The notes beneath the pieces are model-generated. The model was not told the origin of the DNA. It ran no database searches and saw only the letters and a list, made by a program, of their open reading frames with translations. Both the position numbers and the translations under genes were made by a program. Shown in pieces: positions 319 through 61,755 of a stretch of DNA of 64,000 bases (position 1 is the first letter of the stretch; the number at the start of each line of letters is the position of its first letter). Origin of the DNA: Pristiophorus japonicus. Taxonomy: Eukaryota. The stretch covers positions 58,094,001-58,158,000 of the forward strand of contig NC_091999.1 of NCBI RefSeq assembly GCF_044704955.1. Reading direction: 5' to 3'.

Positions 319-319
319 T

Positions 320-645
320 TGTACCTGCCCAGGGAATGGTTAATGAGACAGTGTAGAGGAAACTTTACTCTGTCTCTAACCCATGCTATATCTGTCCTGG
401 GAGTGTTAGATGGGACAGTGTAGAGGGAGATTTACTCTGTATCTCACCTGTGCTACACCTGCCCCGCGAATATCCACTGGAACAGTATAGAGGGAGATTT
501 TATCGACATCTGACAGATGCTGTATCTGCCCTGGAATGGCTGGGACAAGTTAGAGGGAGATGAAGTCTGTGTCTAACCTGTGCTGTACTTGCACTGGAAA
601 CGTTTGATGCAACAGTATAGAGGGAGCTTTATTCAATATTTAACC
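320..645 (+). repeat. Degenerate 67-bp minisatellite (GTGCTGTACCTGCCCTGGGAGTGTTTGATGGGACAGTGTAGAGGGAGCTTTACTCTGTATCTAACCC)
   Basis: About 5 diverged tandem copies; the same unit resumes at 5084-5160 and 6757-7510. Confidence 0.9.
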
Positions 646-5083: not shown

Positions 5084-5159
5084 TAACCCATGTTGTACTT
5101 GCCCTGGGAATGTCGGATGGGACAGTGTAGAGGGAGCTTTAATCTGTATCTACTCCATG

Positions 5160-5972
5160 TCCGTTGTACTCCGTAGAGGACGAAATCCACATTGTGACTC
5201 CAGGAGGAGGTCCTCAGCCACAGGGGAAGACGGTTGAGGAGGATTCTAGCGATGTATTTCCCAATGGCTGGTAACAGGGAGACTCATCTGTAATTGCCAC
5301 AGTCGGATTTGTCCCCTTTGTTCAAGATGGTCACGATTACTGCATCTCTGAGATCTCCAGGACTGCTCTCCTCCTTCCAGATGAGAGAGATGAGGTCATG
5401 CATTCATGCCAATATTGCCTCTCCACCATACTTTAGTGCCTCAGCGGGGATTCCATCCGCTCCCATTGCCTTGTTGTCCTTGAGCTGGCGGATGGCCTTT
5501 TCTATCTCGTGCAGGGCTGAGGTTTTGCTGAGATGTTGGCGGGTAGCATGCTGCAGGATGGAGTCGAGGACATGCGAGTCAAAGGCAGAGTCTCGGTTAA
5601 GGACATCTTCGAAGTGTTCCTTCTAGCGGGTCCTGGCTGCCTCAGTGTCCTTGATGAGTGTTTCCCCATTCTTGGCCAGCAGTGGGGCGGTGCCTTGGGT
5701 GCTTGGGCCATAGGTGGCCTTGACTGCGATGAAAAATCCTCGCACATCATGGCTGTCGGCCAGCTGCTGAAACTCCTGTGATTTCTCCACCCACCATCTA
5801 TGCTTTCGCTCACAGGTCTTTAATTGGACCGCGGTCTTAAGCCGTCTGTAATGCTGCTTTCTGCTCCCGAGTTGGGTTGTTGTTTTAGGTTCAGAATTGC
5901 CCTGTGCTTGTGATTAATTAGCTCTTGCATCTCCTGGTCATTCTCATCAAACTAGTCCTGGTGTTTCCTCGA
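5160..5972 (-). mobile_element. RTE LINE internal segment (linker to start of RT), inverted relative to the adjacent 3' segment
   Basis: Minus strand encodes GDKSDCGNYR..SLLP...ESQCGFRPLRSTTDM-like RTE motifs. Confidence 0.85.
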
Positions 5973-5974
5973 TC

Positions 5975-6756
5975 AGGCCATATCCCCAGCATCGAAGCAC
6001 TGACCATACTCGACCAGCTGCATTGGGTGGGCCACATTGTTCACAACTATTTTAAGTAGAACGATAATCAAGTTCCCCTGATTAAAGGGGGGAGGGGGGT
6101 CACACTCCAGAAACTTTCATTAAAGTGCCCCCTTGTTTTTTTTTGGTAACAAAAAACACAAATTAACAATTCAACATAAAGTTAACTATTGTCAAATCAA
6201 ATCGAATGAATTAAAATTACAATTCTGTTCCCTCTGGAATGATGCATTCCAGTCTCTCTGGTGCTCACCTCTCATGGAAGGCCACGAGTCTACCGGTGGA
6301 CACTGCATGCTCAATCTCCAGGGACACCCTGGATTGACACATTGTTCACATGCATGACACAAGTCTCCCAAAGCAAGGCTCTACTCGGAACTCTTACATG
6401 GCAAGCGAGCCTACAGTGGGCAGAGGAAACCTTTCAACGACACCCTCAAAGCCACCTTGATAAAATTCAACAACCCCCCGATACCTGGGAGTCCCTGACA
6501 AACGTCCGCCCAAATTGAGGAAGTGCATCCGGGAGGGCTCTGAGCACCTCGAGTCTCATCGCCGAGAGCATGCAGAAACCAAGCGGAGGAGCATGCGGCA
6601 AACCAGTCCCACCCACCCTGTCGTTCAACGACTGGCTGTCCCACCTGTGACAGAGACTGTAATTCCCATACTGGATTGTTTAATCACGTAAGAACTCATT
6701 TTAGAGTGTGAGCAAGTCTTCCTCGATTTTGACGGACTGCCAGTGATGATGATGAT
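5975..6756 (+). mobile_element. RTE LINE 3' segment with (GAT)n tail, interrupted by a Tx1 insertion
   Basis: IPSIEALT..LHWVGHIVHM.DTSLPKQ motifs, C-terminal CPTC, 3' end GCAAGTCTTCCTCGATTTTGACGGACTGCC-(GAT)n at 6744-6756. Confidence 0.88.
6046..6337 (-). mobile_element. 5'-truncated Tx1-like LINE 3' end
   Basis: Perfect 13-bp TSD CACATTGTTCACA (6033-6045, 6338-6350); minus strand encodes RVSLEIEHAVSTGRLVAF..LECII, resembling Tx1 ORF2 C-termini. Confidence 0.75.
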
Positions 6757-7510
6757 GTGTACCTAACTTGTGTTGTGCCTGTCCTGTGCATTTTTGGATT
6801 GGCTGTTTAGAGAGAAGTATACCCTGCATCTAAATTATGCTGTACTTGCCCAGTGGGACAGTGTAGACGGAGCTTCACTCCGTATCAAACATGTGCTGTA
6901 CATACCCTGGCAGTGTTTGATGGGACAGTGTAGAGGGAGCTTTACTCTGTATCTAACCCGTGCTGTACCTGCCCTGGGAGTGTTTGATAGGTCACTGTAG
7001 AGGGAGCTTTACTCTGTATGTAACATGTGCTGTACCTGCCACCAGTACGCTTGCAGCCTTCTGTAATAGGTCGGCACCGGAGGGACTGGAGTGTATCATC
7101 ACCTCAAGCAATCAAATTTTAATTTGATTTAAGTTTACCGTCCAAAGTTTAATTGGTTTATTTTTTCGGTTAAGGTTCCCCTCCCTCCTTTAACCAGGAT
7201 GCATTTGATTTACAGGTCAACAACAAAATAGTTGTGCTGTACCTGCCCTGGGATTGTTTCTTGGGACAGTGCAGAGGGAGCTTTATTCTGTATCTAACCC
7301 GTGCTGTGCATACCCTGGGAATACCTGGTGGAACAGTGCAGATGCATCCTTACTGTGTATTTAATATGTGCTGTACCTGCCCTGGGAGTGTTTGATGGTC
7401 AGCGTACAGCAAGCTTTAAATTGTAACTAACCCGTGCTGTACCTGCCCTGGGATTGTTTAGGACAGTACAGAGGGAGCTTTACTCAGTATATAACCCGTG
7501 CAATATCTGG
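6757..7510 (+). repeat. 67-bp minisatellite (degenerate), interrupted by a Tx1 fragment
   Basis: Repeated GGGACAGTGTAGAGGGAGCTTTACTCTGTATCTAACCCGTGCTGTACCTGCCCTGGG. Confidence 0.9.
7041..7232 (+). mobile_element. 5'-truncated Tx1-like LINE 3' end
   Basis: 15-bp TSD TGTGCTGTACCTGCC (7026-7040, 7233-7247); encodes TLAAFCNRSAPEGLECII..QILI*, homologous to the 6046-6337 fragment. Confidence 0.75.
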
Positions 7511-7539
7511 CCCACTCCTGCTACGATTTCTCATGGTCC

Positions 7540-8760
7540 AATGTACCCAGCGTGCCCCTCGGGGTAGAATATGCCGCACCCAGACAACAGGAGCACAGTG
7601 CGCAGGCGCGGGCCCACGCAGTGTTTGGAGCATGCGCGGTGCATGTAATGGCGGAAAAGACATGTTTTTGAGAGGTTCCTCAGAAGTGTCTATTTCGGCG
7701 GGGCGGAGGGGAGTAATCGACCAGCAGGGCGCCGTGGAGGCTTCATAAACAACCGGTGCTCGCCGCAAGCACGCAATAATAACCGGATTATCGGCGGTTG
7801 CAGCTTCGGGGCTTTCTCCCGGTCACAGGTCCAGGCTAACGGCGGCCATCTTCGTACAGGAAGGCAGGTTCAGCGCACCGCCATTTTGATTCAGTGAGTA
7901 GCACCGCGCATGCGCAGCCATCTTGGTGCAGGAACAAAGTGAATGATGTCATTGTCTGGAACTGAACCCAGCCAGAGTCAGTACCTTCAGGGGAGGGGAA
8001 CCAGTGAGTGCAGAACTGATCCCAGCCAGAGTCAGTACCTTCAGGGGAGGGGAACCAGTGAGTGTAGAACTGAACCCAGCCAGAGTCAGTACCTTCAGGG
8101 GAGGGGAACCAGTGAGTGTAGAACTGAACCAAGCCAGAGTCAGTACCTTCAGGGGAGGGGAACCAGTGAGTGTAGAACTGAACCCAGCCAGAGTCAGTAC
8201 CTTCAGCGACCAATGATTGATTGGTGCCGTGGCCCCGCCCCCCTCCACGGATCGGCGCAGAGCGGCGAGCTGGTGCCCCGCTCCGCCTCGCCATTGGCTG
8301 CGGGCTGAGTGTTGGGGGCGGGCGGTTGGGTGGTTTGTTGGTGGGCTCCGCTCACAGCCTTTGAGCTCGGGGCCCAGGTGAGGCGGGGCGGAGTTGTGCG
8401 CAGGCGTGGGGCAGCCTATTGTGCGAGGTTAGCTGCGGACGGACGACTATTTGCCCCACCCCGCGGAGGAAGGATGATCAGCCTGGGCAGTGCGCTCAGC
8501 CTCCCTGAGGACTCACAGACTCACGGACACGCGCGGACGGTGAGATTTGGGTGGCGGCTGTGGGGCACCTTCGGGCGGGGACGGGCCTTGGTTATTGTCG
8601 GGGGTTGCCGGGAGTTCGGCCGCCAGCTTTGGGCAGCAGGGGTCCGCCCGCCACGGGGAGCAGGGAGCAACAGTGGCGGGGCTTCCTCGACATCACAATA
8701 CTTTCCATTGTCCCGCTGCAGGGCAGGGAGCATGCACGGCGGCCATCTTACTGCATGGAG
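7540..8760. promoter_or_regulatory. CpG island with Pol II promoter-like motifs
   Basis: CpG-dense; YY1-like sites (GGCGGCCATCTT 7841, CCGCCATTTTG 7878, GCCATCTTGG 7917, GGCGGCCATCTT ~8738); NRF1 palindrome GCGCATGCGC 7906-7915; CCAAT/ATTGG boxes ~8210-8224 and ~8293; GC boxes; donor-like CAG|GTGAGG ~8376. Confidence 0.65.
7959..8206 (-). repeat. Short array (4.6 units) of the 54-bp satellite
   Basis: GAACTGAACCCAGCCAGAGTCAGTACCTTCAGGGGAGGGGAACCAGTGAGTGTA, the reverse complement of the large-array monomer. Confidence 0.97.
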
Positions 8761-36100: not shown

Positions 36101-38078
36101 CCCTGAAGGTACTGACTCTGGCTGGGTTCAGTTCTGCACTCACTGGTTCCCCTCCCCTGAAGGTACTGACTCTGGCTGGGTTCAGTTCTACACTCACTGG
36201 TTCCCCTCCCCTGAAGGTACTGACTCTGGCTGTGTTCAGTTCTACATTCACTGGTTCCCCTCTCCTGAAGGTACTGACTCTGGCTGGGTTCAGTTCTACA
36301 CTCACTGGTTCCCCTCCCCTGAAGGTACTGACTCTGGCTGGGTTCAGTCCTACACTCACTGGTTCCCCTCCCCTGAAGGTACTGACTCTGGCTGGGTTCA
36401 GTTCTGCACTCACTGGTTCCCCTCCCCTGAAGGTGCTGACTCTGGCTGGGTTCAGTTCTACACTCACGTGTTCCCCTCCCCTGAAGGTACTGACTCTGGC
36501 TGGGTTCAGTTCTACACTCACTGGTTCCCCTCCCCTGAAGGTACTGACTCTGGCTGGGTTCAGTTCTACACACACTGGTTCCCCTCCCCTGAAGGTACTG
36601 ACTCTGGCTGGGTTCAGTTCTACACTCACTGGTTCCCCTCCCCTGAAGGAACTGACTCTGGCTGGGTTCAGTTCTACACTCACTGGTTCCCCTCCCCTGA
36701 AGGTGCTGACTCTGGCTGGGTTCAGTTCTACACTCACTGGTTCCCCTCCCCTGAAGGTACTGACTCCGGCTGGGTTCAGTTCTACACTCACTGGTTCTCC
36801 TCCGCTGAAGGTACTGACTCTGGCTGGGTTCAGTTCTACACTCACTGGTTCCCCTCCCCTGAAGGTGCTGACTCTGGCTGGGTTCAGTTCTACACTCACT
36901 GGTTCCCCTCCCCTGAAGGTACTGACTCTGGCTGGGTTCAGTTCTACACTCACAGGTTCCCCTCCCCTGAAGGTGCTGACTCTGGCTGGGTTCAGTTCTA
37001 CACTCACTGGTTCCCCTCCCCTGAAGGTACTCACTCTGGCTGGGTTCCGTTCTACACTCTCTGGTTCCCCTCCCCTGAAGGTACTGACTCTGGCTGGGTT
37101 CAGTTCTACACTCACTGGTTCCCCTCCCCTGAAGGTACTGACTTTGGCTGGGTTCAGTTCTACACTCACTGGTTCCCACCCCCTGAAGGTACTGACTCTG
37201 GCTGGGTTCAGTTCTACACTCTCTGGTTCCCCTCCCCTGAAGGTACTGACTCTGGCTGGGTTCAGTTCTACACTCACTGGTTCCCCTCCCCTGAAGGTAC
37301 TGACTCTGGCTGGGTTCAGTTCTACACCCAGTGGTTCCCCTCCCCTGAAGGTACTGACTCTGGCTGGGTTCAGTTCTACACTCACTGGTTCCCCTCCCCT
37401 GAAGGTACTGACTCTGTCTGGGTTCAGTTCTACACTCACTGGTTCCCCTCCCCTGAAGATGCTGACTCTGGCTGGGTTCAGTTCTACACTCACTGGTTCC
37501 CCTCCCCTGAAGGTACTGATTCTGGCTGGGTTCAGTTCTGCACTCACTGGTTCCCCTCCCCTGAAGGTACTGACTCTGGCTGGGTTCAATTCTACACTCA
37601 CTGGTTCCCCTCCCCTGAAGGTACTGACTCTGGCTGGGTTCAGTTCTACACTCTCTGGTCCCCCTCCCCTGAAGGTGCTGACTCTGGCTGGGTTCAATTC
37701 TACACTCACTGGTTCCCCTCCCCTGAAGGTACTGACTCTGGCTGGGTTCAATTCTACACTCACTGGTTCCCCTCCCCTGAAGGTACTGACTCTGGCTGGG
37801 TTCAGTTCTACACTCTCTGGTCCCCCTCCCCTGAAGGTGCTGACTCTGGCTGGGTTCAATTCTACACTCACTGGTTCCCCTCCCCTGAAGGTGCTGACTC
37901 TGGCTGGGTTCAATTCTACACTCACTGGTTCCCCTCCCCTGAAGGTACTGACTCTGGCTGGGTTCAGTTCTACACTCACTGGTTCCCCTCCCCTGAAGGT
38001 ACTGACTCTGGCTGGGTTCAGTTCTACACTCACTGGTTCCCCTCCCCTGAAGGTACTGACTCTGGCTTGGTTCAGTTC
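12159..38078 (+). repeat. 54-bp tandem satellite, ~480 units (ACACTCACTGGTTCCCCTCCCCTGAAGGTACTGACTCTGGCTGGGTTCAGTTCT)
   Basis: Uninterrupted 25.9 kb of 54-bp monomers, usually 0-2 substitutions each; left end lies in the gap. Confidence 0.99.
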
Positions 38079-38079
38079 C

Positions 38080-38500
38080 AGACACTGACATCTTTCACGT
38101 TGTACCTGCACCAAGATGGCCACGCATGCGCGGTGCTACTCACTGCATCAAGATGGCGCGGCGCTGAACCTGCCCTGCTGTACCAAGATGGCCGCCGTTA
38201 GCCTGGTCCTGTGACCGGGAGAAAGCCCGGAGGCTGGAACCGCCGATATTCCGGTTATTATTCCGGGCTTGCGGCTGGCACCGGTTGTTTGTGAAGCCTC
38301 CCCACCTCCCTGCTGGTCCCTTACTCCGCTCTGTCCCGCTGAAAAGGACACTTCTGAGGAGCCTGTCCAAAACATATCCGCTCCGCCATTACACGCGTCG
38401 CGCATGCTCCAAACACCCCCAGTACCCGCGTCTGCGCACTGAGCTCCTGTAGTCTGGGTGATGCACATTCTCCCCCGCGGGGCATGCTGGGTACATAAGG
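38080..38500. promoter_or_regulatory. CpG-rich paralog of 7540-7958 with three YY1-like sites and an NRF1-like site
   Basis: CCAAGATGGCC 38111, CGCATGCGC ~38123, CAAGATGGCG ~38149, CCAAGATGGCCGCC ~38183. Confidence 0.6.
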
Positions 38501-38539
38501 CCATGAATAATTGGAGCAGGAGTGGGCCAGATACTGCTC

Positions 38540-39345
38540 GGTTTATATACAGAGTAAAGCTGCCTCTGTGTCCCAGGGCAGGTACAGCACGGGTTAGTTA
38601 CAATTTAAAGCTTGCTGTACGCTGACCCATCAAACACTCCCAGGGCAGGTGCAGCACATATTAAATACACAGTAAGGATCCAGCTACACTGTCCCACCAG
38701 GTATTCCCAGGGTATGCACAGCACGGGTTAGATACATAATAAAACTCCCTCTATACTGTCCCAAGAAAAAAATCACAGGGCAGGTACAGCACAACTATTT
38801 TGTTGTTGATCTGCAAATCAAATGCACCCTGATTAAAGGGCGAAGGGGACACCATAACCGACAAATAAACAATTAAACTTTGGACGTTAAACTTAAATCA
38901 AGTTAAAATTTGGTTGCTGGAGGCGATGCTGCACTCCAGTCCCTCCGATGCCGACCTCTTACAGAAGGCTGCAAGCGTATTGGTGGCAGGTACAGCATAT
39001 GTTAGATACAGAGTAAAGCTCCCTCTACACTGTCCCATCAAACACTCCCAGGGCATGTACAGCACATGTTAGATACAGAGTAAAGCTCCATCTACAGTGA
39101 CGCATCAAATACTCCCAGGTCAGGTACAGCATCGGTTAGATACGGAGTAAAGCTCCCTCTACACTGTCCCATTAAACACTCCCAGTGCAGGCACAGCATG
39201 GGTTAGATACAGAGTGAAGCTCCCTCTACACATTCCCATCAAACACTCGCGGGGCAAGTACAGCATAATTTAGATGCAGGGTAAACGTCTCTCTAAACAG
39301 CCAATGCAAAAATCCACAGGACAGGCACAACACAGGTTAGGTACG
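38540..39345 (-). repeat. 67-bp minisatellite with a Tx1-like insert (38794-38984)
   Basis: Mirror of 6757-7510; TSD GGCAGGTACAGCA(C/T)A on both sides of the insert. Confidence 0.88.
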
Positions 39346-40940
39346 CATCATCATCATCACAGGCAGTCCGTCAAAATCGAGGAAGACATGCTTACACTCT
39401 AAAGGTGAGTTCTTAGGTGACTAAACAATCCAGTACGGGAATTACAGTCTCTTTCACAGGTGGGACAGCCAGTCGTTGAACGAAAGGGTGGGTGGGACTG
39501 GTTTTCTGCATGCTCCTACGCTTGGTTTCTGCATGCTCTCAGCGATGAGACTCGTGGTGCTCAGAGCCCTCCCGGATGCACTTCCTCAACTTAGGGCAGA
39601 CTTTTGACAGGGACGCCTAGGTATTGGGGGGTTGTTGAATTTTATCAAAGAGGCTTTGTGTGTCGATGAAAGGTTTCCTCTGCCCACTGTAGGCTCGCTT
39701 GCCGTGTAGCAGTTCCGAATAGAGCCTTGCTTTGGGAGTCTTGTGTCAGGCATGTGAACAATGTGTCGAGCCAGGGTATCCCTGGAGATTGAGCATGCAG
39801 TGTCCACCGGTAGACTCGTGGCCTTCCATGAGAGGTGAGCACCAGAGAGACTGGAGTGCATCATTCAAGAGGGAACAGAATTGTAATTTTAATTAATTTG
39901 ATTTGATTTGACAAAAGTTACCTTTATGTTGAATTGTTAATTTGTGTTTTTGGTTCCCGAAAAAAAACACAAGTGGGCACTTTAATGAAAGTTTCTGGAG
40001 TGTGACGCCCCTCCCCCCTTTAATCAGGGGGAACTTAATTATTGTTCTACTTAAAATAGTTGTGAACAATGTGGCCCACCCAACGCAGCTGGTCGAGTGT
40101 GGTCAGTGCTTCAATGCTGGGGATGTTGTCTGATCGAGGAATCACCAGGACTGGTTTGATGAGAATGACCAGGAGATCCAAGAGCTAATTAATCAAGCAC
40201 AGTGCAATTCTGAACCTAAAACAACAACCCAACTCGGGAGCAGCAAAGCAGCATTACAGACGGCTTAAGGCCGAGGTCCAAGAAAAAACCTGTGACCTAA
40301 AGCATAGATGGTGGGTGGAGAAATCACAGGAGTTTCAGTAGCTCGCTGACAGCTATGATGTGCGAGAATTCTTCATCGCAGTCAAGGCCCAAGTACTCAA
40401 GGCACCACCCGACTGCTGGCCAAGAATGGTGAAACACTCATCAAGGACACTGAGGCAGCCAGGACCCACTGGAAGGAGCACTTCGAAGATGTCCTTAACC
40501 GAGACTATGCCTTTGACTCGAGTGTCCTCGACTCCATCCTGCAGCATGCTACCCGCCACCATCTCAGCAAAACCTCAGCCCTGCACGAGATAGAAATGGC
40601 CATCCGCCAGCTCAAGTACAACAAGGCAATGGTAACGGATGGAATCCCCACTGAGGCACTAAAGTATGGTGGAGAGGCAATATTGGAATGGATGCAGGAC
40701 CTCATCTCTCTCAGCTGGAAGGAGGAGAGCATGTCTGGAGATCTCAGAGATGCAGTAATCGTGACCATCTTTAACAAAGGGGACAAGTCCGACTGTGGCA
40801 ATTACAGATGAGTATCCCTGTTACCAGCCACTGGGAAAGTCATTGCTAGAATCATCCTCAATCGTCTTCGCCTGTGGCTGAGGAGCTCCTCCTGGAGTCA
40901 CAATGTGGATTTCGTCCTCTACGGAGTACAACGCACATGG
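39346..40940. mobile_element. RTE LINE (3' segment minus 39346-40130, internal segment plus 40130-40940) with nested Tx1 (39766-40060)
   Basis: Mirror of 5160-6756; (CAT)n tail at 39346; TSD TGTGAACAATGTG at 39753-39765 and 40061-40073. Confidence 0.87.
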
Positions 40941-41011
40941 AGTAGATACAGATTAAAGCTCCCTATGCACTGTCTCAGCAGACATTCCCAGGGCACGTAC
41001 AACATGGGTTA

Positions 41012-44000
41012 TGTTATGTATGCAACCCTATGTAACCAGCAATCTACCGCCATCAGAGGGATATCTGTTGGAGTCCCAAGGGATCCCAGCATCTCTTGGG
41101 AACCTGGTATATATGCAGGCCTCCCGTGCTGTACGTGCATTCTGGAGTTGGAAAAAAGAGACCAAGATCACACTTACTCATGTCTACAGTACTCAATCAC
41201 GTTACTTTATTCTGGACATAACAATTGGCGACGAGATAATGAACCATCATGCGAAAATGCAGAGAACTGTTGGTATCCTGGAGAAATTCTCAGAAGGGGA
41301 CGATTGGGAGGTCTTCATGCAGTGACTCGACTAATACTTCATGGCCAACGAGCTGGCAGGGAATGTGAATGTTGCCAAACAAAGGGCGATCCTCCTCACT
41401 CTCTGCGGGGCAACAAACTATAGCCTCATGAAGAATTTTCTTGCTCCGGTGAAACCAACAACCAAATCGTATGAAGAACTGTGTACACTGGTCCAGGAGC
41501 ACCTAAATCCGAAGGAGAGCATTCTGATGGCAAGGTATCGATTTTACACATGTCAACGGTCTGAAGGCCAGGAAGTGGCGAGCTACGTCAGTGAAATAAG
41601 GCACCTTGTAGGACATTGCAAATTTGATGGATGCCAGGAATGAATGCTAAGAGATTTTTTGTGCTTGGCATTGGCCATGAAGATATACTTGGCAAATTAT
41701 TGACTGTTAAAACACCGAAACTGAGCAAAGCCATAACGATAGCCTCGGCATTTATGTCCACCAGCGATAACACCAAACAAGTTTTGCAGCAATCAGAGGT
41801 TTTGGCAAGTACTGTACACAAAGTAACATCGTTTTCAGGCAGGAATGCATATGGCAGAATGTACACGCCTGCAGCTGCATGATCTCAGATGACTCAGAGT
41901 CTGCCATCAAGCGTTAATGCGAGGCAATTAACAGCTTGTTGGCACTGCGGAGGTGATCATCGAGCCCATCAATGTAGCTTCAAACACTATGCGTGCAAAG
42001 GCTGTGGAACAATGGGACACCTCCAGCGAATGTGCAGATGAGCTGCAAACACTGCAAATCACCACATTGCAGTGGTAGACCGATCCATGGTGGATCAAAC
42101 TGAACTAGAGACTCAAACCGAGGAGGCAGAAGTGTACAGGGTACACATCTACATCACGAAATGTCCACCGATCATGTTAAATGTTGAACTGAACGGAATT
42201 CCAGTATCTGTGGAATTGGACATGGGTGCGAGTCAGTCCATCATGAGAAAAGGACCTTCGACAGGCCCAAGCTGAGCCCCATTCACACCAAACTGAAAAC
42301 TTACACGAAAGAGCTGATACCAGTAATTGACAGCACGGTATTAAAAGTCTCTTATAATGGAACATACACGAACTACCACTAAGGATAGTGTCAGGAGCTG
42401 GCCCCACACTGTTTGGCAGAAGCTGGCTGAGAAAAATACGCTGGAGCTGGGATGACATCCGAGCGCTTTCATCCATCGATGACGCCTCATGTGCCCAGGT
42501 TCTGAGCAAGTTTCCATCATTGTTTGAGCCAAGGATCGGAAGTGTCTTGAGGGTGAATGTGCAGATCCACTTGTTTCCCGGTACATGACCCATCCATCAC
42601 AAGGCACGAGCAGTGACATATATGATGCGAGAGAAAGTGGAGAACGATTACGGCAGGCTGCAACGAGAGGGCATCATCGCACTGGTGGAGTTCAACGAGT
42701 GGGCCAGTCAGATTGTTCTGGTTCTCAAGGGCGATGTCATGGTCAAAATTTGCGGGGACTATAAATAATGATTAACCATTTTTCGCTGCAGGACCAGTAT
42801 CCGCAACCCAAGGCAGATGAACTATTTGCGACACTGGCAGGAGGAAAGACATTCACCAAGTTGGACCTGACCTCGGCCCACATGACGCAGGAGCTGGCGG
42901 AATCTTAAAAAGGCCTCACCTGCATCAACACGCTCAAAGGTCTGTTCCTCTACATTAGATGCCCGTTTGGAATTCGATCGACAGTGGCTATTATTCAGAG
43001 GGACATGGAGAGTCTGCTACATTCGGTTCTGCACATCGTGGTTTTCAGGATGATATACTGATCACAGGTCGGGACACCATCGAGCACTTGCAGAACGCGG
43101 AAGAGGTTCTAAGTCGGCTAGATCATGTGGGACTCAGGTTGAAACGCTCGAAGTGTGTTTTCCTGGTGCCAAAGGTCGAGTTCTTAGGGTGAAGAATCGT
43201 GGCAGATGGCATCAGACCACTGACACCGAGACGAAGGCCATCATGAATGCGCCGAGACCACAGAACGTGACGGAGCTGCGGTCGTTCCTGGGTCTCCTCA
43301 ATTATTTTGGTAATTTCCTACCCGGGTTGAGCACCTTGCTAGAACCTCTACACATGTGGCTGCGCAAGTGAGATTATTAGGCATGGGGGAAATCAAAAGA
43401 GACTGATTTTGAGAAAGCCCGAAATCTGTTATGTTCTAACAAACTGCTTGTCCTGTATGATCCATGTAAACGTTTAGTGCTAGCTTGCGATGCATCATTG
43501 TACAGGGTCGGGCGTGTGTTACAATGAGAAAACGAATTGGGAACATTGCAAACGGTCGCCCATGCGTCCAGGAGTTCGTCCAAGGCCGAAAGGACCTACA
43601 GCATGATTGAAAAAGAAGCTCTGGCATTCGTTTACGGGGTGAAAAAATGCACCAGTAGCTGTTTGGGCTTTAGTTCGAGTTAGGAACTCACCATAAGTTG
43701 ATCATATCGCTATTCACAGAGAACAAAGGTATTAAAACCTAAGCTTCTGCTCGCATCCAAATATGGGCGCTCACGCTGTATGCATATAAGTATGTAATTC
43801 ACCACTGGCCAGACACAGAGAACTGCGCTGATGCCCTCAGTTGGCTACTTTTCCCACCACCGGGGTGGAAATGGCGCAGCCTGCAGACTTGCTCTTGGGG
43901 ATGAATGCATTTGAAAATGAAAAGTCACCCGTTTTGGCCAACAGATGAGGACCTGGAACAGCCAGGATCCTTTACTGTCCCTTGTAAAAACTGTGTCCTC

Positions 44001-45439
44001 CAGCGGAGATGCATGAAGAGATCAAGCAGTTCCAGCAGCAAAAAGACGAAATGTCCAGACAGACTGACTGTCTTTTGTGGGGTAATCACGTGGTTTTGCC
44101 CAAGCAAGGCAGACAAATGTTCAAACCTCAACAACACTGTGCCCACCCAGGCATAGTAATGATGAAAGCTGTAGCCAGACCCAATGTGTGGAGGCCCGAT
44201 ATCGACTCAGATTTGGAGTCTTGCGTGCGCCAATGCACCACTTGCTCGCAACTGAGCAATGCACCCAGGGCACCCAAGTTAGCGGTCATGGCCCTCAAAA
44301 CCGTGGTCTAGGATCCACGTTGACTTTGCTGGCCCATTTCGAGGCAAAATGTTCTTTGTTCTTGTGGATGTTTATTCTAACTGGATTGAGTGTGTAATAA
44401 TGTCTGTAAGCACATCCACTGCCACCCTCAAAAACCTACGAGCCATGCAAGGCCTGCCTGATATTCTTATCAGCGACAACGGGCCATGCTTCACCAGCGC
44501 TGAATTCAAGGAATTCATGACACGTAATGGGATCAAGCACATCATATCTGCCCCGTTCAAGCCCGCATCCAATGGCCAGACAGAACGTGCAGTCCAAACC
44601 ATCAAGCAAAGCTTGAAACACATGTAAAAAGGCTCCGTACAGACCCACCTGTCCCGAGTCCTGCTCAGCCACTGCACCAGACACCATTCTCTCACCGGGG
44701 TTCCCCAGCTGAGCTGCTCCTGAAAAGGGTTCTCAAAACAAGGCTTTCTCTCGTTCACCCTGATATCCATGATCAAGTCGAGGGCAGGCGGCATCAACAA
44801 AGCATTTACCGTGATCGCACAGATTTGTAACGCAATATTGAAGGCAATGACCCAATATTTGTACTCAACTATGGACATGGTCACAAATAGCTTGCTGGCA
44901 CTGTCATAGCCAAAGAAGGGAGGAGGGTGTTTCAGGTCAAACTTGCAGAAAGCATTTGGACCAAACCAAACTGCGATTGACAGACAGCCACAAGCAACCA
45001 ACATCGACCCTCCGACACACACACAAGTGTCAACCAACATCATGGCTGACGACGAAGCTGAACTCATCATCCCCAGCAGCCCAGCAAGGTCAGCTGCGCA
45101 GCAGACCAGCGAAGAACCAACCAACTCACCTGCACCTGCATTTGTACTGAGACGATCGACTTGGGAGCGAAAAGCTCCAGATCATCTCAACTTGCAAATA
45201 AGTGTACTATTAACTTTGGGAGGGAGTGATGTTATGTGTGCAACCCTATTTAACCAGAATTCTACCACCACCACAGGGCGTATCTGTTGGAGTCCCAAGG
45301 GATCCCAGCGTCCCTTGGGAGCACTGTATATAAGCAGACCTTCCATGTTGTACGTGCACTCTGAAGTTCGAATAAAGAGACAATTCACATGTACTCACGT
45401 CTACAGTACTCAATCACATTACTTTTTCAGGACTTAACA
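41012..45439 (+). mobile_element. Full-length decayed Mag-like Ty3/Gypsy element (copy 2, made by segmental duplication)
   Basis: LTRs 41012-41223 and 45230-45439; TSD GGTTA/TGTTA; PBS TGGCGACGAG 41226-41235; Gag knuckles CWHCGGDHRAHQC and CKGCGTMGHLQRMC (CX2CX3HX4C + CX2CX4HX4C); LDMGAS protease, FQDD RT, integrase core; PPT GGGAGGGAGTGA. Confidence 0.95.
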
Positions 45440-45444
45440 TGTTA

Positions 45445-45764
45445 AATATAGAATAAAGCTCCCTCTATACTGTTCCACCAAACGTTTCCAGTGCAAGTAC
45501 AGCACAGGTTAGACACAGACTACATCTCCCTCTAACTTGTCCCAGCCATTCCAGGGCAGATACAGCACCTGTTAGATGTAGAGAAAATCTCCCTCTATAC
45601 TGTTCCAGCGGATATTCGCGGGGCAGGTGTAGCACGGGTGAGATACAGAGTAAAGCTCCCTCTACACTGTCCCATCAAACACTCCCAGGACAGATACAGC
45701 ATGGGTTAGAGACAGAGTAATGTTTCCTCTAAACTGTCTCATTAACCATTCCCTGGGCAGGTAC
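45445..45764 (-). repeat. 67-bp minisatellite
   Basis: Mirror of 320-645. Confidence 0.88.
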
Positions 45765-46408
45765 AATCAAACTCATGGTCTACTGGGCTGTAGGAATACA
45801 CGCCCTCCTGTATGGCTCAGAGGCATGGACAATGTACAGTTTTTCTCGCTGGAGATATATCACCAACTATGTCTCCGCAAAATCCTACAAATCACCTGGC
45901 AGTACAGGCACACCAACATCAGCGTCCTCGTCCAGGCTAACGTCCCCAGCATTGAAGCACTGACCACACTCGTTTAGCTCCGCTACGCAGACCACATAGT
46001 TCGCATGCCAGACACGAGACTCCCAAAGCAAGTGCTCTATGCGGAGCTTCTTCACTGAAAATGAGCCAAAGGTGGGCAGAGGAAACGTTACAAGGATACC
46101 CTCAAAGCCTCCCTGATAAAGTGCGTGATCCCCACTGACATCTGGGAGTCCCTTGCCAAAGACCTCCCTAAGTGGAGGAAGTGCATCCGGGAGTCTCATC
46201 GCCAAGGGCATGCAGAAAACAAGTGCAGGTAGTGGAAAGAGCGTGCTGCACCCAACCACCCCTTCCTTCAACGACTATCTGTTCCACCTGTGACAGAGTC
46301 TGTGGCTCTCGTATTAGAATGTTCAGCCACCAAATAACTCACTTCAGGTGTGGAAGCAAGTCTTCCTCGATTCCGAGGGACTGCCTATGATGATGATGAT
46401 GATGATGA
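45765..46408 (+). mobile_element. 5'-truncated RTE LINE with (GAT)n tail
   Basis: LLYGSEAWTMY, CLRKILQITW, GGQRKRYKDTLKASL, CSTCDRVCGSRI motifs; ATGATGATG tail 46387-46408. Confidence 0.9.
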
Positions 46409-51159: not shown

Positions 51160-51331
51160 TTTTAAAATTCTCAGCCTCGTGTTCAAATCCCTCGATGGCC
51201 CCGCCCCATCTATCTCTAACCTCCTCCAGCCCCGACACCCCTCCCTATTTCTGTAACCTCCTCCAGCCCTACACCCCTCCCTATCTCTCTAACCTCCACG
51301 GGCCCCTACACCTCTCCCTATCTCTCTAACC
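51160..51331 (+). repeat. ~35-bp L2-derived minisatellite (CCCTATCTCTGTAACCTCCTCCAGCCCTACACCCCT-like)
   Basis: About 4 tandem copies; the same motif occurs once at ~10288. Confidence 0.7.
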
Positions 51332-51332
51332 T

Positions 51333-51850
51333 TGTTAGGGTTAACTTCAAACCACCACTCGGATTCTGTTAGCCTTAAACTAAATGCAGGTTTTATTAAT
51401 ACAAGCCGGCAGGGGAGCTATCCTTGAAAGAATGCTCGAAGATACTGCCAGAGACAACTTACATTATACAGTTTCAAATTATCGCATTACGTAATTACGC
51501 AAGTTACAATTAATAAATGCTGATTAATACATGAATGATTGGTTCAGCGATTCCTCCAATCTGGCTTCTATATGCCTTAATTGGGAAAACCAAACACATG
51601 TTGTTATGATTCTTTTTATTTAACTTTTATCTTGCTATACAATTCAAATTCTATGTTATCTGTGTCCGTGCCCAGCTCCCTTTGGTCTATGAATTGGAAC
51701 ATCTGCTCCTCTGTGGTAGGCATCCCACACATGCTTCCCACAATCTGAAAAACAGGCTGTGGGTTCCATTTTAAAAACCTGTTAACTCCATTTTAAAACA
51801 TCGCAATTATTATTATTAGTTGTAATTACAATTTCTAATCTGCCCTTTCA
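51333..51850 (-). mobile_element. Endogenous retrovirus 3' LTR (~518 bp)
   Basis: Minus strand starts TGAAAGGG right after the purine tract GGGACCAACAGGAGGGAC and ends CCCTAACA; AATAAA about 60 bp from its 3' end. Confidence 0.7.
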
Positions 51851-52639
51851 GTCCCTCCTGTTGGTCCCTGATTATTTCTAAATAATCAGCTGAGCACATA
51901 TATGTTCTGAGCCTTCTGCTGGAAATGGTGATATCAAGTTCATATCCCTGGGATCGCTCGTAGTTCCATCTTTTGCGGAGTCTTTACATACTACCCTTGA
52001 CCATTTCCCTGGGATATTGGCACGCCACTTATATTTATTTTTGTACAGGCAGTGCATAAGCTCGGGGTCTTGGTTGTTTCCCTAATGCGTTACAAAATCA
52101 TTCGCCTCCCCTATCATGCCTACATTACATAATTAACTAGGCTGTTTGCTGTTCGGCTAGAACCACGTGGTTGTATTTCTCTCTGATCTGACACATCAGA
52201 TATAGTTGGATCACGATACATATCACTTCCACTACCATTATTACCTCAATTGAATGCCACTTCAATTTGAGGACTGCGTAGGCTTCAGGTGACCAGCCCT
52301 TAAACATATCGCACGATGAACAACACTTTTGCTTTCCCTGCCTTATTCTGTCTTGATTCGTGTGTCTCCTGCCTCGGTTTCGTTGATCAGGCGATCGGAT
52401 TGGGACACTCATGACTCAGATCAGGTATTCATGCCGTCTTTTTGTTTGATTAACCTTCTTTGGATCTAGCAAAGGCTTTCTGCGTTCTTGATTACGGGCC
52501 TTGGCCAACCTATTCTTTCTGCGTCTCTTGTATCTGCCTCCACAGTCTCCCAGGAGCATCAGCAACACTATCAGCTGCACTAGGACTAACACATTGGATA
52601 TAATTATAATCCCTATCTTCCAACTTTGCTCGGGTAAGC

Positions 52640-53310
52640 CTCGCCTATCTTTGCACTTGTTACATAACATCACCAACCAAATCAAGGCTATAACTATCTG
52701 TACTGCCACTAGGTTATGTGAAAGGATCGTTATCCAGGGATGTATAATATCAGGTTATCCTTTATTTCACTGTCCAGTTCTTTTGCTTTATCCTTCAGAT
52801 CTTGATATATTTTAATGTTATTTCTTGAGCTAGTTAAATCTTCAAGTAACAGGGGAATTGATTGTGCTTGCTCTTACATGTAAACATCAATATCTTGCTT
52901 AATCTCATCGCTTATATTTCATGTCACTGTCTTCCTGGCATGTCATGCGTGCTCTTCCCACTGCCACCGATTGTCTTGAAGTCACGTAAGTTCCCAGGCT
53001 AGTTACCGCACAATATTCCCCTCGCCCTTGATCGTTGTAATGTGTGGGTTCGGTTCGGGCAGGGTTTTTTCCACTGACACATCCTTCCGTAGTATTGTCA
53101 TACCCGCAGCTATCCTTGCTCCCGTCTCCCACTGGGCGAGGACCTATAGTTAGGCATCTTTCTCTCCGGCACACGGATAACGATATTCCCCTTATATTTC
53201 CATTCATTTTGCTATCATACTGGTCCATTGCGGATGTACTCTTCCCCTCGTATTATGTTTGTTTCCCCTCACATCCTCCTGTAACCGCATACACCCTTGT
53301 CATTCCTTTC
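52640..53310 (-). pseudogene. ERV env remnant (Cys-rich ectodomain, heptad repeat, transmembrane helix)
   Basis: GISLSVCRRERCLTIGP..SCGYDNTTEGC..GRGEYCAVTS, then LEDLTSSRNNIKIYQDLKDKAKELDSEIKD (coiled coil) and HPWITILSHNLVAVQIVIALIWLVMLC; stops and frameshifts; lies upstream of PPT/LTR. Confidence 0.65.
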
Positions 53311-53790
53311 AAAAAGGGCCACATTACAGCAAATGTCAAAAGGGACAAAGTTGTTAAAAAGACAAGCCTGAAGGCTCTGTGCCTCAATGCGAGGAGTATT
53401 TGTAATAAGGTGGAAGAATTAACTGCACAGGCAGCAATTAATGAATATGATATAATTGGCATCACGTTGACATGGCTGTCCTAAGGCTGTGTACCCTGGT
53501 ACCGGACTTCCCCAACATCGGGAACAAGCTACCCGCATCTAACCTGTCCCATCCCGCCAGAATCTTTATGTTTCTATGGAATCCCCTCTCATCCTTCTAA
53601 GGTCCAATGTATAAAAATCCAGTTGATCCAGTCTCTCATCCAATGACAGTCCAGCCATCCCGGGAATCAGTCTGGTGAACCTTCGCTGCACTCCCTCTAT
53701 AGCAAGAACGTCCTTCCTCACATTAGGAGATCAAAACAGAACAAAATATTCCAGGTGAGGCCTCACCAAGGCCCAGTACAACTGCAGTAA
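53310..53790. mobile_element. CR1 fragments: endonuclease N-terminus (plus, 53310-53480) and RT C-terminus (minus, ~53490-53790)
   Basis: LKALCLNARSICNKVEEL..YDIIGITLTWL; minus strand [26 protein letters not shown]. Confidence 0.85.
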
Positions 53791-54561
53791 GAATTTGTTG
53801 AATCTGCATTTTACTGTAATTCTATGACATTCTGAACCGATAAAGAAATGTAATTGTGAAATTTATCTCTGTCTCTCAGTCTCTGCCTCACTCTCTACCT
53901 CTGTCTCTTTAGAGATCTGTGCATGTGTTTGCGTGTTTGAGTCTTTGCCTCCCTCACACTGCCTCTCTCTGACTCACTCTGTCTCTCCCTTTTTCTCTGT
54001 TTGTCTCGGTCTCTCAATCTGCCCGTGTCTTTCTCACAGTGTCCAATTCTGTTCCAAAGGGATTCTCTCAGTCTCTCTGTCTGACTGTCTCTCTCTTTCC
54101 CATCATCACTGTCTGTCTATGTCTCTGCCTGTCTGTCTCTCTTTGCCTGTCTCTGTTCGACCCTGTCTCTAACTTGTTGAGTATTTCCATCATTTTCTGT
54201 TTTTATCTCTGTCTCTCTCTCTCTATCTTCTCTCTCACTATCTCTCTCTCTCTCTTTGTCGCTCTCTTTGTCCATGTCTTTGTCTTTGTCTCTGGCTTTC
54301 CATTACTATTTACCTCCCTCTCTTTATGGAGCACACACACACACATCTCTGTGTATGTGTGTGTTTGAGTCTTTGTCTCACTCAGTCTGCCTATCCCTCT
54401 CAGTCTCACACTTGCTCTCTCTCTCTATTTCTCTAGCTCGCTGTCTGTCTCTCCCTGTTTCTCTTTTTGTGTCTGTCTCTCAATGTGTCTGTCTCTTTCT
54501 CACGGTGTCCAGTTCTTTTCACAGCTCGATTCCTGCTGTCTCAAAATCTACACCCGTCAGC

Positions 54562-56741: not shown

Positions 56742-57479
56742 TCTCTTTAATTTAACACGGATTTCCTCCCATTCTGATCAGTGAGACCGGATTTTCATCG
56801 GTTGAATCAGCAATTTTCTGTAACAATGTGACACTCTGAACCGATAATGAAATGAAATTGTGAAATGTATCTGTGTCACTCGGTCTCTGCCTCTCTCTCT
56901 CTCTTCAGAGAGTTGTGTATGTGTTTGTATGTTTGAGTCTTTGTCTCTCTCACTCTGTCTGTCCCTATTTCTCTGTTTGTCTCTGTCTCTCAATCTGTCT
57001 CTTTCTCACGGTGCCCACGTCTGTTCCAATGGGATCCTCTCAGACTCTTTGTCTGACTGGCTCTCTCTTTCCCATCATTTCGGTCTGTCCATGTCTTTGC
57101 CTGTCTCTGTTAGTCCCTGCCTGTAAGCTGAGAAGTATTTCCATCATTTTCTGTTTAAGTCTCTATCACTCTCTCTCTATCTGTCTCTCTCCTTGTCACT
57201 CTCTTTATCGTTGTCTTTCTCTCACTCTTTCCCTCGCTCTCTTAATAGATCACACACACACATCTCTGTATATGAAAATGTTTGAGTCTTTTTCTCACTC
57301 AGTGTGCCTATCCTTCTCAGTCTCACACTTTCTGTCTCTCGTTGTCTCTATCTCGCTGTCTGTCTCTCCCTGTTTGTCGGTTTGTCTCTGTCTCTTAATG
57401 TGTCTGTCGACTTCTCATGGTGTCCAGTTCTGTTCACAGTGGCTGGATTCCTGCTCTGACAGAAGTGGTACCCGTCAGT

Positions 57480-57553
57480 TCCTCGTTAGTATAGTGGTAA
57501 GTATGCCCCCCCCTATCACGCGGGAAACCGCGGTTCAATTCCCCGACGGGGAG
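57480..57553 (+). pseudogene. tRNA-Asp-derived pseudogene
   Basis: TCCTCGTTAGTATAGTGG...TTCAATTCCCCGACGGGGAG with a C-run insertion in the anticodon arm and GTC>ATC. Confidence 0.85.
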
Positions 57554-57772
57554 GCAGTTGTTTTAAAATGCAGCTTTTTACTTCTGTTTCTTGGCAGAGA
57601 TGCATATTAAAAAGTTCCAGAACAATATCGAACTGTAAAAATACATTTAGAGGAGATTCCCTCGTCCACATTTTTAGCAAACGAAGAATTTGTCCCGAGT
57701 CTTTGGCCGTCTGCTGCACAGAGATGGATGACTGAGATTTTTCTGAGTAACGATTAAAAAGGCAGCGACACA

Positions 57773-57853
57773 TTAGTCGTGGCCGAGTGGTTAAGGCGAT
57801 GGACTAGAAAGCCATTGGGTTATCCCGTGCAGGTTCGAATCCTGCCGACCACG
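57773..57853 (+). tRNA. tRNA-Ser(AGA), probably impaired
   Basis: A and B boxes intact, anticodon AGA; mismatches in the acceptor stem (two) and anticodon stem (one). Confidence 0.7.
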
Positions 57854-58618
57854 ATTCTCAGTATTTTTCATTCCATTTCACAATTTAACCGGTTCTCTGC
57901 CAAACTGAACCTGAGATTTATGGAACAACGTCCCACACCTTTCAACGCTGACATTTTCTTCTCATTTTTATATTCACGATCCAATATTCACGATACATCC
58001 GTTTCAAAAATCGCAAACGTCAGTCAAAGTTGCGACAGTGATTCAGACTGTCTATCCCTCGAGATGACGAAGGCATCTGTGCATGCCCGTTGGTGCGTGC
58101 AAATTTTTGGTTATGTGTGTGCGTGTCTTTGTGTCTGTCTATCTCTGTATATGTCTCTGTGTATGTGCAACTGTCTGTGGAAATCATCACCATGAATTTG
58201 GTATGTCCTGGAACTTATAAAAAAGACTTGGGGAAAATAATACGGTTGTTTAACTTTTGTATCGGCTTTGGTTCAGTGGCAGCATTCTCGACTGAATCGG
58301 GAGTTTGTGTGTTCAAGTCGCACTCCTGAGACTTGAGCATATCATCTTGGCTAACACTCAAGTGCAGCACTTGGGGAATTTTGCAATGTTGAAGCTGTTG
58401 ACTTTCGGATGAATGTTAAATTGAAGCTCCATCTGCACCCTCGGGTGGATATGAAAGGTCCCAGAGCATTAATCGAAACAGAGTATGAGAGTTGCCCCCG
58501 TGTCAATATGACTAAAAATGTTCGTAAATCTCACTGAAAGCCGATGTGTATGTGTTTGTATGTGGGGTTGGGGTTGAAGCCCAGATTCTCACAGAGACAA
58601 AATCCAGGCTCTCACAGG

Positions 58619-58700
58619 ACCAGGATAGCCGAGTGGTTGAGGCGTTGGCCTTAAAATTCAATGTGTTTTTCCCGCGTGGGTTCGTACCCCACTCCTGGTA
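58619..58700 (+). pseudogene. tRNA-Leu(TAA), full length but probably a pseudogene
   Basis: ACCAGGATAGCCGAGTGG...GTGGGTTCGTACCCCACTCCTGGTA; acceptor stem intact; anticodon-stem mismatch, weak variable arm. Confidence 0.8.
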
Positions 58701-59448
58701 TCTCTTTAATTTAACACGGATTTCCTCCCATTCTGATCAGTGAGACCGGATTTTCATCGGTTGAACCAGCAATTTTCTGCAACAATGTGACACTCTGAAC
58801 CGATAATGAAATGAAATTGTGAAATATATCTGCGTCGCTCGGTCTCTCCCTCTCTCTCTCTCTTTAGAGAGTTGTGTATGTGTTTGTATGTTTGAGTCTT
58901 TGTCTCTCTCAGTCTGACTCACTCTGTCTGTCCCTGTTTCTCTCTTTGTCTCTGTCTCTCAATCTGTCTCTTTCTCACGGTGCCACGTCGTGTTCCAATG
59001 GGATTCTCTCAGACTCTTTGTCTGACTGGCTCTCTCTTTCCCATCATTTCGGTCTGTCCATATCTTTGCCTGTCTCTGTTACTCCCTGCCTGTAAGCTGA
59101 GAAGTATTTCCATCATTTTCTATTTTAGTCTCTATCGCTCCCACTCTATCTCTCTCTCTCCTTGTCACTGACTTTATCATTGTCTTTCTCTCACTCTTTC
59201 CCTCTCTCTCTCAATAGATCACACACACACACATCTCTGTATATGTATATGTTTGAGTCTTTTTCTCACTCAGTCTGCCTCTCCTTCTCAGTCTCACACT
59301 TTCTGTCTCTCGTTGTCTCCATCTCGCTGTCTGTCTCTCCCTGTTTGTCGGTTTGTCTGTCTCTCAATGTGTCTGTCGACTTCTCATGGTGTCCATTTCT
59401 GTTCACAGTGGCTCGATTCCTGCTCTGACAGAACTGGTACACGTCAGT

Positions 59449-59520
59449 TCCTCGTTAGTATGGACGTAAGTATCCGTGCCTGTCACGCGGGAGACCGGGG
59501 ATCAATTCCCCGACGGGGAG
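59449..59520 (+). pseudogene. tRNA-Asp(GTC) pseudogene
   Basis: 72 bp, anticodon GTC, but D loop/A box (TATGGACG) and B box (GGATCAA) are mutated. Confidence 0.85.
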
Positions 59521-59738
59521 GCAGTTGTTTCAAAATGTCGAATTTTACTTTTGTTTCTTGGTCGAGATTCATGTTAAAAAGTTCCAGAGCAATATCGAAC
59601 TGTAAAAATACAGATCGAGGAGATTGCCTCTTCCAGAATTCAGCAAACGGAGACTATTTCAGGAGTCTTTGGCCGTCTGATGCACAGAGATGGATGACTG
59701 AGCTTTTTCTGAGTAACGATTAAAAAGGCAGCGACACA

Positions 59739-59819
59739 GTAATCGTGGTCGTGTGGTTACGGCGATGGACTCGAAATCCATTGGGTTATCTCGCGCAGGT
59801 TCGAATTCTGCCGACAACG
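59739..59819 (+). pseudogene. tRNA-Ser copy with anticodon CGA, probably a pseudogene
   Basis: ATGGACTCGAAATCCAT anticodon arm; acceptor-stem and D-arm mismatches. Confidence 0.8.
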
Positions 59820-60579
59820 ATTCTCAGCATTTCTCATTCCATTTCATAATTTAACCAGTTCTCTGCCAAATTGATCCTGAGGTAGATGGAATAACGCCCA
59901 CACCTTTCAATACTGACATTTTTTTCTCATGTTTATTAATATACAATATTCACGATGCATCCGTTTCAAAAATCGCAAACATCAGTCAAAGTTGCGACAG
60001 TGATTCAGCCTGTCTATCCCTCGAGATGACGAAGGCATCTGTGCATGCCCGTTGGTGCGTGTAAATTTTTGGTTATGTGTGAGTGTGTCTCTGTGTCTGT
60101 CTATCTCTATATATGTCTCTGTGTATGTGCAACTGTCTGTGGAAATCATCACCATGAATTTGGTATGTCCTGGAACTTATAAAAAAGGCTTGGGGAAAAT
60201 AATACGGTTGTGAACTTTTGTATCGGCTTTGGTTCAGTGGCAGCATTCTCGACTGAATCGGGAGTTTGTGTGTTCAAGTCGCACTCCTGAGACTTGAGCA
60301 TATCATCTTGGCAAACACTCAAGTGCAGCACTTGGGAAATTTTGCAATGTTGAAGCTGTTGACTTTCGGATGAATGTTAAATTGAAGCTCCGTCTGCGCC
60401 TCGGGTGGATATGAAAGTTCCCAGTGCATTACGCAAAAAAGTATAGGAGAGTTGCCCCCGTGTCAATATTACTAAAAATGTTCATAAATGCTCACTGAAA
60501 GCCGATGTGTATGTGTTTGTATGTGGGGTTGGGGTTGAAGCCCAGATTCTCACAGAGACAAAATCCAGGTTCTCACAGG

Positions 60580-60654
60580 ACCAGGATAGCCGAGTGGTTG
60601 AGGCGTTGGCCTTAAAATTCAATGGGTTTTACCCGCGTGGGTTCGTACCTGGTA
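60580..60654 (+). pseudogene. tRNA-Leu(TAA) pseudogene with T-stem deletion
   Basis: GTGGGTTCGTACCTGGTA lacks the 3' strand of the T stem. Confidence 0.85.
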
Positions 60655-61393
60655 TCTCTTTAATTTAATTTAACACGGATTTCCTCGCATTCTCATCAGT
60701 GATACCGGGTTTTCATCGGTTGAATCAGCAATTTTCTGTAACAATGTGACACTCTGAACCGATAATGAAATGAAATTGTGAAATATATCTGTGCGGCCCG
60801 GTCTCTGCCTCTCTCTCTCTCTTCAGAGAGGTTTGTATGTTTGAGTCTTTGTCTCTCTCTGTCTGACTCACTCTGTCGGTCCCTGTTTCTCTGTTTGTCT
60901 CTGTCTCTCAATCTGTCTCTTTCTCACGGTGCCACGTCTGTTCCAATGGGATTCTCTCAGACTCTTTGTCTGACTGGCTCTCTCTTTCCCATCATTTCGG
61001 TCTCTCCATGTCTTTGCCTGTCTCTGTTAGTCCCTGCCTGTAAGCTGAGAAGTATTTCCATCAATTTCTGTTTTAATCTCTATCGCTCTCTCTCTATCTG
61101 TCTCTCTCCTTGTCACTGTCTTTATCATTATCTTTCTCTCACTCTTTCCCGCTCTCTCTTAATAGATCACACACACACATCTCTGTATATGTATATGTTT
61201 GAGTCTCTTTCTCACTCAGTCTGCCTCTCCTTCTCAGTCTCACACTTTCTGTCCCTCGTTGTCTCTATCTCGCTGTCTGTCTCTCCCTGTTTGTCGGTTT
61301 GTCTCTGTCTCTCAATGTGTCTGTCGACTTCTCATGGTGTCCAGTTCTGTTCACAGCTCGATTCCTGCTCTGACAGGTATGACAGCCGTCGGT

Positions 61394-61465
61394 TCCTCGT
61401 TAGTATAGTGGTGCGTGTCCCCGCTAGTCACGGAGGAGACCGGGGTTCAATTCCTCGACGGGGAG
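61394..61465 (+). pseudogene. tRNA-Asp(GTC), probably a pseudogene
   Basis: A and B boxes present; anticodon loop/stem altered (CCCGCTAGTCACGGAGG). Confidence 0.8.
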
Positions 61466-61674
61466 CCAGTTGTTTCAAAATGTCGAATTTAGTTCAGTTT
61501 CTTGGTAGAGGTTTATATTAAAAAGTTCCAGAACAATATCGATCTGTAAAAATACAGGTGGAGGAGATCACATTTTTCGCAAACCGAGAATTTTTCAGGA
61601 TTATTTGGCCGTCTGCTGCACAGAGATGGGTGACTGAGTTTTTTCTGAGTAACGTTCAAAAAGGCAGCGATACA

Positions 61675-61755
61675 GTAGTCGTGGCCGAGTGGTTGAGGCG
61701 ATGGACTAGAAATCCATTGGGTTATTCCGTGCAGGTTCGAATCCTGCCGACTACG
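61675..61755 (+). tRNA. tRNA-Ser(AGA), apparently intact
   Basis: Acceptor GTAGTCG/CGACTAC, anticodon stem ATGGA/TCCAT and T stem GCAGG/CCTGC all pair; A and B boxes intact; T5 Pol III terminator about 10 bp downstream. Confidence 0.88.

Follow-up and report, generated by a model that had tools for sequence, protein, structure and literature searches.

A decayed cartilaginous-fish provirus with a probable F-type envelope remnant and a second membrane anchor

Organization of the element

On the minus strand of a 64-kb stretch of Pristiophorus japonicus DNA (64,000 nucleotides of contig NC_091999.1, referred to here as the window), running from about position 53310 down to 51333, is a broken env-like gene followed by a purine tract and a single long terminal repeat (LTR). 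No second LTR lies within the element, and a second copy of the element is absent from the window. The features are listed below in window coordinates, with P0002 denoting the sevengill shark homologue described further on.

51333–51840, minus strand: 3′ LTR with an approximate 5′ edge, a terminal CA and AATAAA at 51397
~51841–51860, minus strand: polypurine-tract-like stretch; position fits; 17/20 purines by hand count
51878–52081, minus strand: open frame of 67 codons separating the env tail from the LTR, perhaps what is left of an accessory gene
52137–52418, minus strand: continuation of the env frame after the stop at 52418, with a Cys cluster and a third hydrophobic segment (52259–52182)
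52419–52649, minus strand: Env tail, comprising a short basic loop, a second membrane anchor (52625–52533) and a basic stretch with an R-x-K-R motif
about 52650–52745, minus strand: Env transmembrane anchor, 56% identical to P0002 207–238 (E = 4e-8)
52760–52915, minus strand: HRB-like helix near the membrane, out of frame with the parts on either side, with one stop at 52876
52905–53252, minus strand: Cys-rich ectodomain remnant, putatively F domain I/II-like
53311–53830, both strands: CR1-like LINE fragments bounding the element, an endonuclease-start piece on the plus strand (~53311–53480) and a 3′ piece on the minus strand (~53485–53790), with read depth above 1e6

Closing the element at 51333 is the LTR, whose terminus reads ...AACA. 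A polypurine tract (PPT) and LTR had been placed downstream of the env remnant in the preliminary description, and both are found there (51860–51841, and the 51333 end with AATAAA), though the purine score of 17/20 is also reached at other places and so is not unique to the putative PPT. The LTR is joined to the internal 3′ region by one 986-nt contig from another organism, which spans 51361–52337 with 63 differences. Purine tract, LTR with polyadenylation signal and multiple copies are all features of an LTR provirus. The 51878–52081 region has no Pfam match in three frames. Adjoining the LTR end is a short C/T-rich tandem repeat (51200–51332) of very high read depth.

On its 5′ side the element stops at about 53310, where read depth jumps from thousands to more than 1 million. 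The pieces beyond this junction (53311–53830), which we take to be CR1 from their sequence features, have no Pfam match in translation, and stretches similar to them occur elsewhere in the window. Of the truncation by CR1 that had been proposed, the junction stands; the name CR1 is our assumption, and a clean insertion fits less well: as the CR1-like piece at the junction comes from the interior of its element and lies in opposite orientation, loss by deletion or rearrangement is the preferred explanation. Missing from the element are gag-pol, including the reverse transcriptase (RT) and the region of the tether and RNase H, the primer-binding site, and the N-terminal half of Env. The parts of Env cut off at about 53310 would have included any signal peptide, RXKR site, fusion peptide and N-terminal coiled coil.

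The envelope ectodomain and its anchor

The Cys-rich frame (53252–52905) has Cys at residues 28, 33, 49, 58, 81 and 105, with the spacing C28-x8-G37, C49-x8-C58 and x22-C81. It is followed by the helix (52915–52760) and, immediately after that, by the transmembrane anchor (52739–52650); a heptad helix directly before the anchor is a class Ib feature. This succession of Cys spacing, helix and anchor had been pointed out before and is recovered here, as is the suggestion that the Gly was formerly a Cys, the homologue P0002 having Cys at the position equivalent to G37. In its best register the window helix has hydrophobic residues at 8/15 a/d positions and at 9/37 others, a modest pattern, compared with 10 of 13 and 5 of 32 in the P0002 helix. 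Frame changes near 52915 and 52750 break env, and the window copy is unable to encode an Env. Neither CX6CC nor an ISD-like pattern is present in the six frames of 51333–53310, in agreement with the reported absence of gamma-type motifs.

A second anchor in a long tail

Beyond the first anchor its frame continues for 205 codons with one stop (52418); at most one stop was seen in 2 of 5,000 base shuffles and 1 of 3,000 dinucleotide shuffles. Located in this tail is a second membrane anchor (52625–52533), which matches the P0002 anchor so closely that none of 5,000 shuffles was as good, for the whole segment or for its core. Compared with one another, the two anchors of the window are less alike, with 5 of 5,000 shuffles reaching the score of the whole segment, 175 of 5,000 that of the core (borderline) and 93 of 1,000 that of the DNA (not significant). 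This weaker match points to an old duplication or to a captured env end, the latter of which would have come from recombination with a related env. Contigs from two organisms bridge both anchors.

The preliminary description had overlooked the long open frame after the transmembrane segment and two further hydrophobic segments. New here is a 205-codon frame after the ectodomain with an additional, homologous membrane anchor that other copies of the element also have; P0002 ends in one anchor and a tail of 20 residues, and the two-anchor layout was found in no paper of the literature searched. The two anchors could form a membrane hairpin, or could belong to a membrane-bound accessory product. 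The third hydrophobic segment was considered as a third copy of the anchor, a reading that is not supported, as many as 330 of 5,000 shuffles matching the Env anchor equally well.

Homologues and copies

A HMMER search of 1.84 billion representatives returned two matches, P0002 (E = 1.3e-6) and a repeat protein (P0003), the second of which was dropped as chance. P0002 is XP_067846792 of the sevengill shark Heptranchias perlo. It is colinear with the Cys region, helix and anchor of the window over about 200 residues, and its ectodomain scores 41.2 bits against the element, compared with 17.8 on average and at most 26.9 for 200 shuffles. The env piece is also contained in two further gene models of H. 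perlo (P0004 and P0005), in one of which it is joined to an integrase core. All three homologues found (XP_067846792, XP_067837673 and XP_067834977) come from this one species, in keeping with a cartilaginous-fish host, with 22–33% identity to the element in the ectodomain and 56% in the anchor. They resemble the window copy in the colinear C-terminal half of Env, and from the final Cys in common to the anchor they run about 36 codons longer. Judged by its sequence, the env remnant is real.

In the P0004 model the env piece is fused to a C2H2 zinc-finger array, and in P0005 it lies between the integrase core and a p24/GOLD piece; these fusions may be either gene-model artefacts or exonisation. 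Word-indexed searches returned nothing among 174 candidates for the window Env, and for P0002 they returned 2 of 323 longer candidates and only itself among 128 candidates of near length.

The element is multi-copy. Diverged contigs cover all of its bins in two sequencing runs and most bins in two others (four of eight listed runs compared, from two organisms), where read depth does not equal copy number and this exact copy of the element is absent from the contigs compared. No RNA dataset is among the matches listed for the element. A scan of viral contigs called three stretches relatives, with no locus for env and none for the tail, and a metagenome scan gave no related locus. A 13-residue match in a phage-like contig was set aside as chance; positions 1–2200 of that contig (L001) hold a phage-like lysis locus unrelated to the element.

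Class of the fusion protein

On sequence layout only, the envelope is best read as F-type (class Ib) and as a relative of lokiretrovirus Env. The comparison comprised 17 of the 23 published lokiretrovirus Env proteins, from the part of the PMC7947760 supplement available to us, and 16 of the 17 reach the Cys region. Common to these 16 is the pattern C-x9-CP-x12/13-CG-C...W-x-[VLI]-x-T, with the Trp some 21 residues beyond the last of the four Cys in every case. Allowing ±2 slack in the spacing and any aromatic residue in place of the Trp, the motif is complete in P0002 and P0004 and is matched by the window copy only when the second Cys is freed, with one gap in the alignment sitting at the limit of the slack. 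Across all six window frames it occurs a single time, and 2 of 200,000 shuffles of each sequence produce it, a figure that flatters the motif because the pattern was written post hoc, after an alignment by eye.

The element and lokiretrovirus (lokiortervirus) Env, as far as the latter is documented in the accessible portions of PMC7947760 and PMC9040795, have four Cys in common, alike in order and spacing and with CP and CG dipeptides, and about 21 positions past the last of these both have an aromatic residue. In both, the helix is followed by the anchor and gamma-type motifs are absent. In contrast, the shark family has Tyr-Cys for the Trp and a longer pre-anchor helix, P0002 has extra Cys and a Trp-rich stretch, and the window copy has the second anchor and long tail. 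Lokiretrovirus Env is in turn linked to the paramyxovirus F family (PF00523) with an E-value of 2.2e-7, according to the available text of PMC7947760, and foamy-virus Env is described in the part of PMC11468914 available to us as having an F core of class Ib. With paramyxovirus and pneumovirus F and with foamy Env the element shares, through this link by way of lokiretrovirus Env, a Cys-rich β region, a heptad helix and an anchor; the searches gave no direct sequence or structure match to them, and neither the cleavage site nor the fusion peptide nor HRA survives in the window.

The resemblance to F proteins put forward in the preliminary description is supported indirectly, by Cys spacing, layout and the lokiretrovirus link, and is not echoed by profile or structure searches, none of which returned an F protein. 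Pfam gave no F match for the window pieces or P0002, fragments from which the N-terminal half of Env is missing, and no TLV_coat match either. PDB sequence searches gave chance matches only and no F protein, and a search with P0004 was swamped by its zinc fingers. The AlphaFold models of the Env pieces have pLDDT values of 43 and 32 and are unreliable; Foldseek/VIA searches with them gave coiled coils or noise, and the absence of F among the matches listed carries no weight.

The ESM Atlas, searched over clusters of at least 50 members and giving no alignment, leaned towards class III. Ranked first were Monjiviricetes_fusion clusters (0.92–0.93; 173–186 shared features; 18 of 30 matches), followed by gB and rhabdovirus G, with no F or baculovirus-F family among the matches listed; the window piece itself had no usable match. 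Eight of the ten best named Atlas matches share a family or clan, and by the Atlas calibration at least 170 shared features are uncommon for chance matches, as would be expected if an LTR retrotransposon carried a class III (chuvirus/gB-like) fusogen as its Env. The Atlas query, however, was a fragment with a generic helix, Trp-rich stretch and anchor; HMMER finds neither PF24664 nor gB, and the lokiretrovirus Cys spacing fits. Because the Atlas ranking comes without an alignment and without confirmation by HMMER, we consider a class III fusogen quite unlikely. An ordinary gamma- or epsilon-type Env, decayed beyond recognition, could be imagined in view of the epsilon-like endogenous retroviruses (ERVs) reported in a chimaera (PMC4422223, as far as available), but the element lacks any CX6CC or ISD pattern, and P0002, whose frame is intact, has no Pfam match whatsoever, TLV_coat included. 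For this fragment such an Env is largely refuted, and its probability is very small.

Relationship to known retroviruses

Taken together, the element is probably the dead 3′ half of a multi-copy LTR retrovirus provirus of a cartilaginous fish, with an F-type (class Ib) Env that is homologous to lokiretrovirus Env and forms a distinct branch. An F-like Env cannot by itself name the lineage, because foamy-virus Env is F-like as well (PMC11468914).

The sequence suggests that the element works like one with a lokiretrovirus or F-type Env; membership of the lokiretroviruses is not established and appears somewhat unlikely. Were the element a true lokiretrovirus, the clade would extend to cartilaginous fishes and the Env differences would reflect lineage drift, a reading that we regard as rather doubtful. 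In its favour are the shared Cys spacing and the integrase piece in P0005, a gene model predicted for a different species. By hand count this piece is identical to Loki-Ape at about 51/103 positions and to KoRV at about 40/103, and three of four short motifs taken from it occur mainly in lokiretrovirus rows, the comparison rows available having left out SnRV, ERV-L and foamy-like sequences. Against it, K-L-P-L-V, found in 24/24 of the lokiretrovirus integrase rows available, is missing from P0005; none of the lokiretrovirus Envs compared from the available supplement has a Trp-rich pre-anchor stretch like that of P0002; and the published screen found lokiretroviruses in none of three chondrichthyan genomes, so the host class is negative there. 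The window, P0002 and P0004 moreover carry Tyr-Cys in place of the Trp of 16/16 lokiretrovirus Envs compared, a signature that is our own reading of the available PMC7947760 supplement and not a published criterion.

Also possible, on a tentative footing, is a class III-type canonical retrovirus (shark or frog foamy-like, or snakehead-retrovirus-like) with an F-type Env, which is a refinement of the preferred reading and not an alternative fold. Foamy Env possesses an F core (PMC11468914, available part), and both SnRV-like and foamy-like ERVs are described in a chimaera, the foamy-like ones without a detected env in the accessible text of PMC4422223 and PMC5512871. The region 52650–51860 fits two traits given for SnRV and foamy-like viruses in the available portions of PMC12193657 and PMC5210030, namely a long tail on Env and accessory frames at the 3′ end. 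The likeness to snakehead retrovirus (PMC12193657) and to fish foamy-like ERVs (PMC5210030, PMC5512871) in the long tail and the extra frames before the 3′ LTR is by description only in these partly available sources, and the accessory genes of fish foamy-like ERVs are described in PMC5210030, so far as accessible, as being without transmembrane motifs. There is, on the other side, no Foamy ENV Pfam match, and foamy-like and SnRV Envs were compared by description only.

Proposed history and significance

On the preferred reading, a provirus with an F-type Env related to that of lokiretroviruses, the parent virus would have fused membranes as F proteins do, by cleavage and insertion of a fusion peptide, and the surviving C-terminal helix would have packed on an N-terminal helix to form a helix bundle, the N-terminal parts lying outside the window. 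The 5′ half of the provirus may then have been lost through deletion or rearrangement.

More speculatively, the element may stem from a retroviral lineage of cartilaginous fishes that is new to the literature and belongs to neither the lokiretroviruses nor the foamy viruses, with an F-type Env bearing two homologous anchors and with further membrane-bound accessory coding. If so, a two-anchor hairpin would place the basic tail with its furin-like site outside, and the Env would add a branch between lokiretrovirus Env, foamy Env and paramyxovirus F. No paper on an ERV with an F-type Env in sharks was found in the literature searched, with subscription papers mostly outside the search. Should a third branch of F-type Envs in cartilaginous fish be tied to an RT, it would show whether retroviruses had such an Env ancestrally or acquired it several times. 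The present locus is a poor specimen for this purpose, being dead, half missing and without pol, and its own contribution is the duplicated anchor and the long coding tail.

Wider setting of the locus

The 64-kb window is repeat-rich vertebrate-type DNA with a 54-bp array, long inverted arms, LINE fragments and a tRNA cluster. The array (12053–38100) consists of about 480 tandem copies of the 54-bp unit at 95–99% identity, is open over more than 1,000 codons in several frames and has an N gap near its left end. Flanking it are inverted arms of about 8 kb (~245–8206 and ~37831–45840) that are 89–94% alike, the left arm ending in a few copies of the 54-bp unit. Both arms hold LINE pieces and decayed pol remnants that, by their motifs, we presume to be Gypsy-type. 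These remnants were considered as the pol of the element and rejected, their match to the P0005 integrase being weak (E = 0.045–0.12). Seven tRNA genes or pseudogenes (Asp, Ser, Leu and Thr) lie amid CT-rich repeats at 57479–61755, and tRNA-like remnants are apparent by eye near 54550 and 54830.
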